Shown here: positions 571 to 45,906 of the stretch, in pieces
How the letters are laid out: each line of letters starts with the position of its first letter
Numbering within the stretch: position 1 is the first letter of the stretch
Translations under genes and position numbers: made by a program
From: an uncultured bacterium
Lineage (GTDB): Bacteria; Margulisbacteria; WOR-1; CAVSGV01
Assembly (NCBI GenBank): GCA_963727815.1
Contig: CAVSGV010000005.1
Span: 101,348 to 165,347, forward strand
Direction of reading: 5' to 3'
Length of the DNA stretch: 64,000 bases
Notes under the pieces: model-generated
The model's database searches: none
What the model was told of the DNA's origin: nothing
Seen by the model: only the letters and a program-made list of their open reading frames with translations

Positions 571-641
571 CAGGAAGCCTGAGACTAAACGTCTCGGCTT
601 CCTGATAAATAGGAAACCGCGAAGTTTATTCGCAGGTTTCC
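571..641. repeat. Two-hairpin palindromic element, copy 1
   Basis: caggaagcc-t-gagac-taaac-gtctc-ggcttcctg (571-604), then ggaaacc-gcgaa-gttta-ttcgc-a-ggtttcc (612-641). Second copy at 45088-45166. Confidence 0.9.
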
Positions 642-43319: not shown

Positions 43320-44186
43320 ATGAAAATTCTTCTTATCGGCGCGGACGGACAGCTGGGCACCGACATCCAAAAGGTAAAAAATAAAGCGGAACTTATTCCC
43401 CTGACGATCAAAGACATTGACGTCACTGACAGGGCCGGGACGGAAAAGGTCGTATCAAAACATTCTCCGGACGTTGTGATAAACACTTCCGCATTTCACA
43501 GGGTTGATGATTGCGAGGACCGCGATGACCTTGCTCTTGCGGTCAATGCGACAGGGGTCAAGAACCTTTGTCTTGCATGCGCGAAGACCGGCTCAGTCCT
43601 TGTCCACATAAGCACCGATTACGTTTTTGACGGCAAGAAACGGACGCCGTACGTGGAAGACGACTGTCCCAGGCCCGGAACGGCGTACGGCATCTCCAAG
43701 CTTGCCGGTGAATATTACGTTTGCTACATGCTCAAGAAATATTTCCTGATAAGGACCTGCGGGCTTTATGGCGTGGCCGGATGCCTGGGAAAAGGAGGCG
43801 GGAACTTCGTGGAGAACATTCTGGACGCTTCCAGGAAGAACGGCGTCCTGAAAGTGGTGGACGATCAGGTCGTCAGCCCCACGTATTCGCTGGACCTGGC
43901 GGGAAAGATAATGCAGCTCATCTCCACGGAGCATTACGGGCTTTATCACATAGCCAATAAGGAGAAATGCAGCTGGTACGAATTCGCGGCCAAGATATTT
44001 GAACTTACCGGAACAAAGGTGAAACTTGAAAAGTCGTCAACTTCCGACTATAAGGCCAAGGCGACCCGTCCGGCGTATTCGGTCCTTGATAATCAAAACC
44101 TCAGAAAGCTGGGATTGGACGACCTGCGGACCTGGGATAAGGCACTGAAAGCTTACCTCGAAGAAAAAAAACAGATCGATGCCTGA
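43320..44186 (+). CDS. rfbD: dTDP-4-dehydrorhamnose reductase
   Basis: GADGQLG, HISTDYVFDG, YGISKLAGE, VVDDQ..SPT, RPAYSVL. Confidence 0.92.
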   Translation: MKILLIGADGQLGTDIQKVKNKAELIPLTIKDIDVTDRAGTEKVVSKHSPDVVINTSAFHRVDDCEDRDDLALAVNATGVKNLCLACAKTGSVLVHISTDYVFDGKKRTPYVEDDCPRPGTAYGISKLAGEYYVCYMLKKYFLIRTCGLYGVAGCLGKGGGNFVENILDASRKNGVLKVVDDQVVSPTYSLDLAGKIMQLISTEHYGLYHIANKEKCSWYEFAAKIFELTGTKVKLEKSSTSDYKAKATRPAYSVLDNQNLRKLGLDDLRTWDKALKAYLEEKKQIDA

Positions 44187-45075
44187 CATATCGGTCGTCG
44201 TCACATCTTATGACTTCAGGGATCTAGTCGACGGATGCTTGAGCTCCATCATTCAAGGAACGAAAGACCGATCATATGAGATCATAGTTGTGGATGACGC
44301 GTCAACCGACGGGACGCCCGACATGATCCGAAAAAAATATCCTTCCGTTAAGCTTCTGATCAATCCCCAAAATCTCGGATATGTCAGATCGAACAACATT
44401 GGCGTTAGGGAATCTCTCGGGAAATACGTGTTTTCGCTGAACAACGATACCGTCGTTGCCGCAGATGCGATCAGTAAGCTTGCTAAGTTCCTCGATGAAC
44501 ATCCGGACGCGGGGGCGGTGGGTCCCAGGCTTGTGAACGGCGACGGATCCCTTCAGATGCAGTGCCGCCGCTCTTTTCCTTCCCCGCTCAATGCGATCGC
44601 GTATTTTTCCGGATTGTCAGCGCTGTTCCCGAAGAACAAGCTGCTCGGTGCATATCTTCTCACCTACCTGGACGATTCCAATCCCGAAGAAGTCGATTGT
44701 TTGTGCGGCGCTTCGATGATGGTCCGCAGGGAAGCGATAGATGAAGTGGGGCTCATGGACGAGGATTATTATATGTATGGGGATGACGTGGACTGGTGTT
44801 TCAGGATGAAAGAGTCCGGCTGGAAGATATTCTACCTTCCCTCTGCAGAGATATTGCATTTTGGCGGGATGGGTGGCAGCAGGAAGCGGAGTTTCAGGAA
44901 CATTTTTGAATTTCACAGGGCCATGGCGGTGTTTTACGGTAAGCATTATGCCGACGGTACTTTTTTCCTTCTGAACTGGCTTGTCTATCTGGGAATATGG
45001 CTCAAGTGCATCATATCTCTGGGCCTGAACCTTTTCAGAAAAGACAAGTATGTAGGGACGAAAAAGCCGTATTGA
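44179..45075 (+). CDS. GT2 glycosyltransferase (WbbL-like)
   Basis: DDASTDGT, N.GY..SNN.G, LNND, GASMMVRR, YMYGDDVDWC. Confidence 0.88.
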   Translation: MPDISVVVTSYDFRDLVDGCLSSIIQGTKDRSYEIIVVDDASTDGTPDMIRKKYPSVKLLINPQNLGYVRSNNIGVRESLGKYVFSLNNDTVVAADAISKLAKFLDEHPDAGAVGPRLVNGDGSLQMQCRRSFPSPLNAIAYFSGLSALFPKNKLLGAYLLTYLDDSNPEEVDCLCGASMMVRREAIDEVGLMDEDYYMYGDDVDWCFRMKESGWKIFYLPSAEILHFGGMGGSRKRSFRNIFEFHRAMAVFYGKHYADGTFFLLNWLVYLGIWLKCIISLGLNLFRKDKYVGTKKPY

Positions 45076-45087
45076 TGATATAATAAA

Positions 45088-45166
45088 TGGAAGCCAGCGA
45101 CTAAACGTCGCGGCTTCCAATCAAATCAATATCGGAAACCGCGAAGTTCATTCGCAGGTTTCCGAT
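45088..45166. repeat. Two-hairpin palindromic element, copy 2
   Basis: tggaagcc-a-gcgac-taaac-gtcgc-ggcttcca, then atcggaaacc-gcgaa-gttca-ttcgc-a-ggtttccgat. Confidence 0.9.
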
Positions 45167-45186: not shown

Positions 45187-45906
45187 ATGAAAGGCATAAT
45201 ACTCGCGGGCGGGACCGGTTCCAGGCTTTATCCGCTGACAAAGGTCACGAACAAACATCTTCTTCGCGTCGGAAAAAAACCGATGATCTATTACCCCATC
45301 GAAAAGCTCATGGAGGCAGGAATTGATGAGATACTGATAGTCACAGGCGTTGAACACATGGGCGACGTCGTGACGCTTCTCGGTAGCGGAAAAGACCTCG
45401 GTTGCCGTTTTACTTACAAAGTTCAGGACGAGGCGGGAGGCATCGCCCAGGCGCTGGGACTTGCCGAGTATTTTTGCGGCGGCGGGAAAATGATCGCGAT
45501 ACTCGGGGACAACATCTTCGAAGATAAGCTTTCTAAACTAAAGGGAGACTTCAAAGAAAAAGGATCAGGAGCGAAGCTTATCCTTAAAGAAGTCAAGGAC
45601 CCGAACCGTTTTGGCGTTGCGGAAATTAGAGCGGGCAAGCTGGTCGGCATCGAAGAGAAGCCAAAGGACCCTAAGAGCAAACTCGCGGTCACAGGCATCT
45701 ATATGTACGATCCCAGCGTGTTCGACATCATAAGGACTCTCAAGCCGTCCAAGAGGGGAGAACTTGAGATAACCGACGTGAACAACGAATATATCAGGCG
45801 CGGCCAGGCATCTTACGAGATCATGAACGGGTGGTGGACCGATGCCGGGACCTTTGAAACCCTTGAACTCGCCTCTCTGCTGGTGGAAGGAAAAGCAAAA
45901 GCGTGA
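45187..45906 (+). CDS. rfbA: Glucose-1-phosphate thymidylyltransferase (short form)
   Basis: GIILAGGTGSRLYPLT...NKHLL, ILGDN, EEKP..PKS, RGELEITD, WTDAGT. Confidence 0.88.
   Translation: MKGIILAGGTGSRLYPLTKVTNKHLLRVGKKPMIYYPIEKLMEAGIDEILIVTGVEHMGDVVTLLGSGKDLGCRFTYKVQDEAGGIAQALGLAEYFCGGGKMIAILGDNIFEDKLSKLKGDFKEKGSGAKLILKEVKDPNRFGVAEIRAGKLVGIEEKPKDPKSKLAVTGIYMYDPSVFDIIRTLKPSKRGELEITDVNNEYIRRGQASYEIMNGWWTDAGTFETLELASLLVEGKAKA

Follow-up and report, generated by a model that had tools for sequence, protein, structure and literature searches.

The subject of this analysis is a 64,000-nucleotide (nt) stretch of DNA, hereafter the window (contig CAVSGV010000005.1), from an uncultivated member of the Saganbacteria, an uncultivated sister lineage of the Cyanobacteria. 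The host assembly comprises 1.68 Mb on six contigs and is 70% complete. The window carries two copies of a two-hairpin element, at positions 571–641 (copy A) and 45088–45166 (copy B), and we conclude with good confidence that this element is a non-autonomous mobile DNA related in type to the repetitive extragenic palindromic (REP) doublets known as REPINs and to bacterial interspersed mosaic elements (BIMEs), that it stems from a unit-tnpA-unit element, and that it was probably moved by a transposase of the IS200 type (IS, insertion sequence). The family to which both copies belong is polar, structured, dispersed, and polymorphic for insertion and deletion, and it is tied physically as well as phylogenetically to one type of Y1/HUH transposase. 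The original prediction, made from the window alone, had offered either a minimal non-autonomous element or a new cis-regulatory RNA. The former is favored by the covariance scan, a TnpA gene flanked by the hairpins, empty sites, and the lack of a matching Rfam family. The latter fits poorly, as the units occur in both gene orientations, lie inside coding sequences, and are polymorphic for insertion and deletion.

A dispersed family of inverted hairpin doublets

Hairpin 1 of copy A (571–604, + strand) has the sequence CAGGAAGCC-T-GAGAC-TAAAC-GTCTC-GGCTTCCTG and is followed, after a 7-nt spacer, by hairpin 2 (612–641), GGAAACC-GCGAA-GTTTA-TTCGC-A-GGTTTCC. Copy B is composed of an A-bulged variant of hairpin 1 (45088–45119, + strand; TGGAAGCC-A-GCGAC-TAAAC-GTCGC-GGCTTCCA), an 11-nt spacer, and hairpin 2 (45131–45166; ATCGGAAACC-GCGAA-GTTCA-TTCGC-A-GGTTTCCGAT). 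The features by which the pair had been recognized are borne out by the sequence. The TAAAC loop and the one-base bulges are common to both copies, the compensatory change in the inner stem is real (GAGAC/GTCTC in copy A versus GCGAC/GTCGC in copy B, i.e., A-T versus C-G), the outer closing pairs differ, hairpin 2 is identical at 29 of 30 positions, and each copy lies between co-directional genes just 5' of a start codon. What had escaped the first reading is that both hairpins are of one unit type, with hairpin 2 placed in inverted orientation. A single degenerate pattern, GGAARCC-N-GNGAN-TAAAC-NTCNC-GGYTTCC, fits all four window hairpins (two on the + strand and two on the − strand; 0.00 expected) and, thus, each element is an inverted doublet of a palindromic unit of ~30 nt. 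The unit consensus is GGAARCC-T-GCGAC-TAAAC-GTCGC-GGYTTCC, in which a 5-nt loop closes a 5-bp inner stem that is separated from an outer stem of 6–10 bp by a one-base bulge, nearly always a T. Read on the − strand, hairpin 2 of copy A becomes GGAAACC-T-GCGAA-TAAAC-TTCGC-GGTTTCC, while that of copy B is a unit with a TGAAC loop. Either DNA strand of the doublet consequently reads 5'-[T-bulged hairpin]-spacer-[complementary hairpin]-3'. The folding energies calculated for RNA, on either strand, are −42.1 kcal/mol for copy A and −45.7 kcal/mol for copy B, corresponding to z-scores against shuffled sequences of −8.4 and −9.5, respectively, with no shuffle equal to the real fold; folding with DNA parameters returned the same two hairpins per copy.

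The element had been described as a repeated pair, and while the two copies stand, the limitation to a pair does not: the family numbers 36–40 units genome-wide. A strict structural search collected 36 units, and the covariance model built from these (R1) found ~40, the additional four or so being diverged. The four window hairpins score 50.5 and 52.1 bits (copy A, units 1 and 2) and 50.9 and 50.1 bits (copy B, units 1 and 2) with this model, and the R1 scan, which had been proposed as a check, recovers the family both across the genome and across the class. Thirty of the units form 15 doublets, all of which have the polarity "+ then −" (binomial p = 6e-5), and the same polarity was found in 65 of 70 adjacent pairs from 108 loci of other genomes (binomial p = 3e-17). 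Core-to-core gaps in adjacent pairs are mostly 10–39 nt. The units fall into subtypes according to the loop (TAAAC, TGAAC, or the 6-nt A(A/G)TATC) and the inner stem (GCGAC, GCGAA, GAGAC, or GAGGC), and two different subtypes are usually combined within one doublet. Within the unit alignment 97.6% of the stem cells are paired and six of 12 pairs have changes on both sides, a statistic that was unmatched by any of 500 shuffles or any slid register, the pairing being partly circular where it was required for collection (perfect pairing of the inner stem and two outer-stem pairs beyond the fixed CC/GG). Outer pair 5/31, which lay outside the selection criteria, consists of 20 A-U and 15 G-C combinations, with none unpaired.

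Approximately 18 gene-less copies of the element are present in the genome. Most copies are located at −17 to +12 nt from a gene's 3' end, and units are found next to genes in every relative orientation as well as inside coding sequences.

The transposase locus and the distribution of the family

Pfam Y1_Tnp matches only two places in the genome. The product of the first, P0001, is a 130-residue IS200-type Y1/HUH TnpA encoded by a single-copy gene at C6:203.2–203.7 kb. It scores 71.5 bits with PF01797 and 70.6 bits with NF033573 (IS200/IS605; cut-off 55), and reaches 39.3 bits, below the cut-off of 80, with NF047646, the model for REP-associated tyrosine transposases (RAYTs). The best PDB match is the TnpA of ISDra2 (2XM3; E value 6e-13), with which the HUH motif (HVH) and the catalytic YIDHQ are aligned. 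The HuH, W, and Y motifs (WS/WG and YIDHQ for the latter two in P0001), together with the C-terminal G-x-DKR, are conserved in 10 homologues of P0001.

A search for a TnpA gene bracketed by the same hairpins, suggested along with the original prediction, was successful in this genome as well as in relatives. The tnpA gene is flanked by units at C6:203243–203272 (+ strand, TAAAC loop) and C6:203674–203710 (− strand, AGTATC loop), and seven gene-less doublets carry the same pairing of TAAAC with A(A/G)TATC. Given this match in both arrangement and subtypes, the doublets look like the element minus its gene. One relative (G004) carries, at the orthologous place 5' of the same secretin gene, a gene-less doublet in which a 48-nt spacer still contains the leader of tnpA, its ATG, and the final codons ahead of the downstream unit. 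In the host genome the tnpA frame has no stop and belongs to an open reading frame (ORF) of 484 amino acids (L003:3761–5215, − strand; C6:202260–203714) that continues through an R1 unit, translated as WKPRRLVAGFL, into a type II/IV secretin; between the unit and the hydrophobic segment, the secretin lacks a canonical in-frame start. The unit-derived LVAGFL is part of the lipoprotein signal peptide of the secretin in G004 (L167) and G001 (L169), and the signal peptide is ordinary in G005 and G003. Directly 3' of the secretin gene lies the second Y1 gene, a class-2 RAYT (C6:201689–202252; L003:3187–3753, − strand) with 110 bits on NF047646 and the motifs DHIH, WQ, and YILNNP. Beside it, an 18-nt repeat (GTCGGGTACGGAGCCAGC) is present in five tandem copies (L003:3062–3180). 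Neither this tandem unit nor the palindromes flanking the gene are dispersed in the genome, and the gene looks like an orphan RAYT.

Among relatives, R1 units were found in 51 of the 65 genomes of the class, with up to 104 per genome, and a search of 81 genomes from other classes of the phylum returned none. The exact 20-nt core of the hairpin (CCTGCGACTAAACGTCGCGG) is present in at least 108 DNA stretches from many Saganbacteria/Margulisiibacteriota metagenome-assembled genomes (MAGs), the matches being almost exclusively to Candidatus Saganbacteria, Margulisiibacteriota or WOR-1; a comparison of the core with viral contigs gave 0 matches. Homologues of P0001 share 39–57% identity and number one to three per genome. 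In a subset of 41 genomes, a transposase of this type is encoded in 17 of 28 genomes that bear units versus 0 of 13 that do not (Fisher p = 1.5e-4). Twelve tnpA-type loci, i.e., that of the host and those of 11 relatives, were compared. Strong units on both sides, with the "+" unit on the left and the "−" unit on the right, within ~100 nt, are characteristic of the loci in the host genome, G007, G006, G019, and G004; most of the others have weaker or one-sided matches, and G014 has none. A WOR-1 MAG (RIFOXYB2_FULL_48_7) also has a tnpA homologue between tandem units and doublets (L034:6590–7312). On one side of the gene, an R1 unit recurs three times without change at a period of 51 nt, the 21-nt spacers being identical too, and on the other are repeated doublets. 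This array is a tandem amplification of units at a transposase locus. A reading as an array of clustered regularly interspaced short palindromic repeats was rejected, given that identical spacers indicate tandem duplication next to tnpA.

Insertion sites and polymorphism

The orthologous sites, whose inspection had likewise been proposed, proved to be empty for both window copies. Copy A lies between the 3' part of thiL (thiamine-phosphate kinase; 3–563, + strand) and a gene for a PepT-like M20 peptidase (654–1784, + strand), with 7 nt between it and the thiL stop and 12 nt between it and the ATG of the pepT-like gene, and the whole insertion at this junction comprises ~90 nt (564–653). The thiL-pepT synteny is retained in 11 relatives, and at a twelfth locus (G008) a different gene precedes pepT. 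Hairpins are absent from this junction in 10 relatives, where the stop of thiL and the start of pepT overlap or adjoin each other (gap ~0–26 nt), so that the site is empty in 10 of 12 genomes. The overlap in G001, G002, and G005 reads cacttTTGATAAAC, in which a TTG start overlaps the TGA stop. A doublet at this position was found only in the host genome and in G007, a member of a different family, and the two doublet sequences differ. The pepT start of the host is an ATG that follows GGAG just beyond the right-hand hairpin, and that of the same-family relatives G001, G002, G004, and G005 is TTG. The insertion seems to have replaced the translational coupling of thiL and pepT by an independent ribosome-binding site. 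The insert follows the sequence TTGAT, and TGAT recurs at its right end.

Copy B separates a gene for a family-2 glycosyltransferase (44179–45075, + strand) from rfbA (glucose-1-phosphate thymidylyltransferase; 45187–45906, + strand), and is located 12 nt past the stop of the former and 20 nt before the ATG of the latter. The box TGATATAAT (45076–45084, + strand) precedes it. This box, as TGGTATAAT or TGATATAAT, is conserved past the glycosyltransferase stop in G001, G003, G004, and G005, and 5' of rfbA in G002. Judged from its conservation, TG(G/A)TATAAT is possibly an extended −10 element, which would place copy B in the 5' untranslated region (UTR) of rfbA; a consensus scan called no sigma-70 promoter at TGATATAAT. 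The synteny of the glycosyltransferase gene and rfbA is found in four same-family relatives. In G001 a short leader past the box aligns with the two flanks of the doublet and, hence, represents an empty site. G002 has another gene in the upstream position, and its rfbA leader is empty as well. In G003, G004, and G005 (L179, L177, and L175, respectively) unrelated hairpin pairs, different in each genus (e.g., cccttctcctgtaaacaggagaaggg), are located between the box and the ribosome-binding site of rfbA. The rfbA leader is an insertion hotspot for several hairpin families. An exact look-up of the rfbA protein, meant to reveal near-identical strains, found no such protein on record.

Polymorphism was also evident between the congeners G012 and G016, whose flanking sequences are ~90% identical. 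A single 39-nt unit, with 3–5 nt on each side, is present in G016 and absent from G012, and the two genomes differ in further units 5' of their tnpA genes. Moreover, three doublets are in frame inside housekeeping genes of the host, where they add ~23–50 residues at loops or linkers. They are located in pcrA/uvrD (C6:406502–406574), a rimO-like gene (C6:423555–423629), and a mtaB/miaB-like gene (C3:525842–525988). In pcrA/uvrD, 26 doublet-encoded residues replace three residues of four same-family relatives and fall, relative to Geobacillus PcrA, into a gapped, poorly aligned stretch. In the rimO-like protein the insert falls in the linker that joins the N-terminal domain to the radical-SAM domain. 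In the mtaB/miaB-like protein the 50-residue insert is an R1 doublet whose spacer itself harbors a member of a different repeat family. This second, unrelated palindromic family (gtcaccctgagc.../gtcattctgagcgaagcgaagaatc...) was found within or beside the spacers of R1 doublets at C1:42752–42829, C3:525870–525936, and C6:134880–134955, which indicates nested insertions. Elsewhere in the genome, C3:503285–507580 and C6:266891–271447 share inverted stretches of 2.2 kb at 96% and 1.1 kb at 99% identity.

Mechanism, alternative explanations, and known systems

A mechanism for the spread of the units can be drawn from the HUH Y1 enzymes of IS608 and ISDra2 and from the TnpA_REP of E. coli (PMC3333891, PMC3479197, PMC6006769). 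The doublet would have originated as a gene-less derivative of the unit-tnpA-unit element. The transposase would bind the folded hairpin on single-stranded DNA, with the bulged T, the inner stem GCGAC/GTCGC, and the TAAAC loop as the likely features recognized, and would cut and rejoin the DNA near the foot of the hairpin, moving units or doublets in trans. As its two strands look alike, either of them could serve for processing of the doublet. Copies would land mostly at gene ends and be kept where they are harmless, and in-frame copies would be tolerated in protein loops. Effects on the thiL-pepT and rfbA transcripts, such as uncoupling, a new ribosome-binding site, or a structured 5' UTR, would be by-products. 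Selection for a foldable hairpin with a fixed bulge, loop, and inner stem would explain the covariation of the stems.

Several points weigh against the proposal that the doublets are transposase-borne mobile DNA. Mobilization in trans by TnpA is a step that we infer. A conserved tetranucleotide for cleavage or targeting was sought at the foot of the hairpin and not found, either in the host genome or in relatives; the foot columns of the unit alignment are variable, and the outer flanks have no enriched 4- or 5-mer in common. The target of ISDra2 is TTGAT. As a general target this pentanucleotide was considered and rejected, since it lies 5' of six of the 36 host units, but of only nine of 134 TAAAC-loop units overall (those of the host included), and is not enriched in 182 units of relatives. 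The flanking hairpins are inverted, unlike the ends of IS200/IS605 elements, so that the strand-transfer geometry of IS608 and ISDra2 is not simply transferable. The tnpA frame of the host, being without a stop and fused to the secretin, may not give rise to an enzyme of normal form. Part of the pairing statistic is circular because inner-stem pairing was a criterion of collection, and the test of co-occurrence between units and transposase ignores phylogenetic non-independence. Finally, six genomes bear units and have no detectable Y1 gene: G022 (52 units), G033 (62 units), G034, G003, G005, and G028. For these there are three options: loss of the gene, its omission from the MAGs, or persistence of the units by some other means.

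The last of these options leads to the best-surviving alternative, which we nevertheless regard as improbable, namely that the units were once spread by a transposase and are now immobile DNA structures maintained by the host, e.g., as sites for nucleoid or topology proteins, as has been proposed for BIMEs. The identity of the 20-nt core across the class would in that case stem from host selection and not from ongoing transposition. This would fit the retention of the exact core in so many stretches while the transposase homologues have diverged, the dozens of consensus-quality units in genomes without a Y1 gene, and the fusion of the host's own tnpA to the secretin. However, unit presence differs between the congeners G012 and G016, and occupancy differs between genera at every locus that was examined, indicating continued turnover; no host binding protein was identified. 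In addition, MAGs easily and commonly lose genes that are flanked by repeats, which makes the absence of tnpA weak evidence.

It is very unlikely that the doublet is primarily a cis-acting RNA, i.e., a stabilizer of mRNA, a processing site, an attenuator, or a translation uncoupler. The REPs of E. coli do affect mRNA stability and termination (PMC2817692, PMC3333891), and the very stable RNA folds, the location of both window copies at co-directional junctions just 5' of a start codon, the concentration of most copies around gene 3' ends, and the persistence of units in genomes without a Y1 gene would all suit such a role, as would the placement of copy B 3' of the conserved TG(G/A)TATAAT box, probably in the rfbA 5' UTR. 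Nonetheless, the element is strand-symmetric and is found in every orientation relative to genes, three doublets are inside coding sequences, the same units bracket a transposase gene, and the junctions of 10 relatives work without the element, with stop and start overlapping. Conservation of a site at orthologous positions across genera was not seen. An intrinsic terminator was rejected, as neither copy has a T-run on the sense strand. A search of the window against Rfam gave 0 matches at the gathering thresholds, and permissive E values around copy A likewise produced nothing meaningful; the sub-threshold chance matches were to rli61 (23.5 bits; threshold 50) and PsrR1 (20.2 bits; threshold 42). 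Secondary effects on mRNA, in the form of thiL/pepT uncoupling and a structured rfbA leader, are plausible.

Least probable of all is that another enzyme mobilizes the units, either a small GIY-YIG nuclease or the class-2 RAYT 1 kb away, which has its 110-bit match and its position beside the secretin/tnpA locus to recommend it, but was rejected as the cognate enzyme on account of its flanks and distribution, because R1 units are missing both beside it and at nine homologous loci in relatives, and it is encoded in only eight of 41 genomes with no relation to unit content, being absent from most of the unit-rich genomes and present in the unit-free G038.

Mobile DNA of the REPIN/BIME type, moved by the class-1 enzyme, is therefore retained as the explanation. 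We also offer, tentatively and as a lesser possibility, an evolutionary extension of it, in which a class-1 Y1 enzyme was independently recruited into a low-copy partnership resembling that of RAYTs, perhaps inherited largely vertically and persisting since near the origin of the Saganbacteria, with units co-opted by the host in the loops of PcrA and RimO, in part of the signal peptide of the secretin, and as leader or junction structures. The 20-nt hairpin core would have remained frozen while the enzyme diverged to ~40% identity. Host co-option, if true, would explain how units survive where a genome has no Y1 gene.

REPIN-RAYT is the textbook example of a system whose transposase has ceased to copy itself and instead maintains a population of short hairpins. 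To our knowledge, it has been described almost entirely from Proteobacteria, with class-2 TnpA_REP enzymes. The present family represents a familiar kind of selfish DNA, found in a new lineage and tied to a class-1 enzyme, and no new kind of mechanism is implied. If the interpretation is correct, there would be a second evolutionary route to the REPIN-RAYT organization, via a class-1 IS200-type enzyme, and the compact pair of enzyme (130 amino acids) and hairpin (30 nt) would lend itself to the study of hairpin recognition by HUH proteins. It would also account for a number of oddities in Saganbacteria MAGs, including the fused tnpA-secretin ORFs, inserts of 23–50 residues in housekeeping proteins, and assembly breaks, as well as for the lineage-specific loss of stop/start coupling between thiL and pepT. 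None of the papers that were searched describes such a system in the Saganbacteria (Margulisiibacteriota).

The features shared with the REP/BIME/REPIN-RAYT system, or "REPtron", of E. coli and Pseudomonas (PMC2817692, PMC3116915, PMC3333891, PMC5581495) include short palindromic units in tens to a hundred copies, their arrangement as inverted pairs with a short spacer and two subtypes (cf. the Y and Z REPs of BIMEs), and a low-copy Y1/HUH gene bracketed by inverted units. In both cases the units are mostly extragenic, at gene ends, and the family is long-lived within one lineage. The enzyme, however, is of class 1 here (IS200 type, with DHVH and Y-x-x-x-Q), while RAYTs are of class 2 (YIxxNP; motif table in PMC6006769), and the units are without the GT[AG]G or CGTC tag that REPs have at the foot of the hairpin (PMC6006769). 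Unlike a REP, moreover, each unit is a near-perfect palindrome with a single bulged T.

With the IS200/IS605 elements IS608 and ISDra2 the system shares the transposase family, including the HuH and Y-x-x-x-Q motifs, subterminal imperfect hairpins, and the lack of an obvious target-site duplication. The end hairpins of IS608 carry an extrahelical T that is recognized by TnpA. In contrast to IS200/IS605, in which the end hairpins are on the same strand, those of the present element are inverted, with the T-bulged form on opposite strands. There is no tnpB and no fixed target penta- or tetranucleotide could be demonstrated. Furthermore, where IS200/IS605 elements have several near-identical full-length copies per genome, tnpA is single-copy here, a lower bound in a genome that is 70% complete, as opposed to ~18 gene-less derivatives.

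Palindromic repeats that are in frame within protein genes are also known from the Rickettsia palindromic elements (RPEs) and other miniature inverted-repeat transposable elements (PMC10969869), a likeness that extends to the repeat-derived residues in a signal peptide, and REPs occur inside some tnpA_REP genes (PMC6006769). As compared by description, the present family differs from RPEs in having an identifiable Y1 transposase, and no sequence relationship between the two is known. Further possible parallels are the non-duplicated IS200-like or atypical Y1 transposases with abundant flanking repeats or atypical hairpins, which make up subclasses 1.2, 2.6, and 3 of Quentin et al. 2018 (PMC6006769) and the "IS200 Group 3" of Bertels et al. 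2017 (PMC5581495). None of these has been reported from the Margulisiibacteriota. The latter is a group of IS200 sequences without duplicates and with abundant flanking 16-mers and, as far as can be judged from its description, it may be the same phenomenon as that found here.

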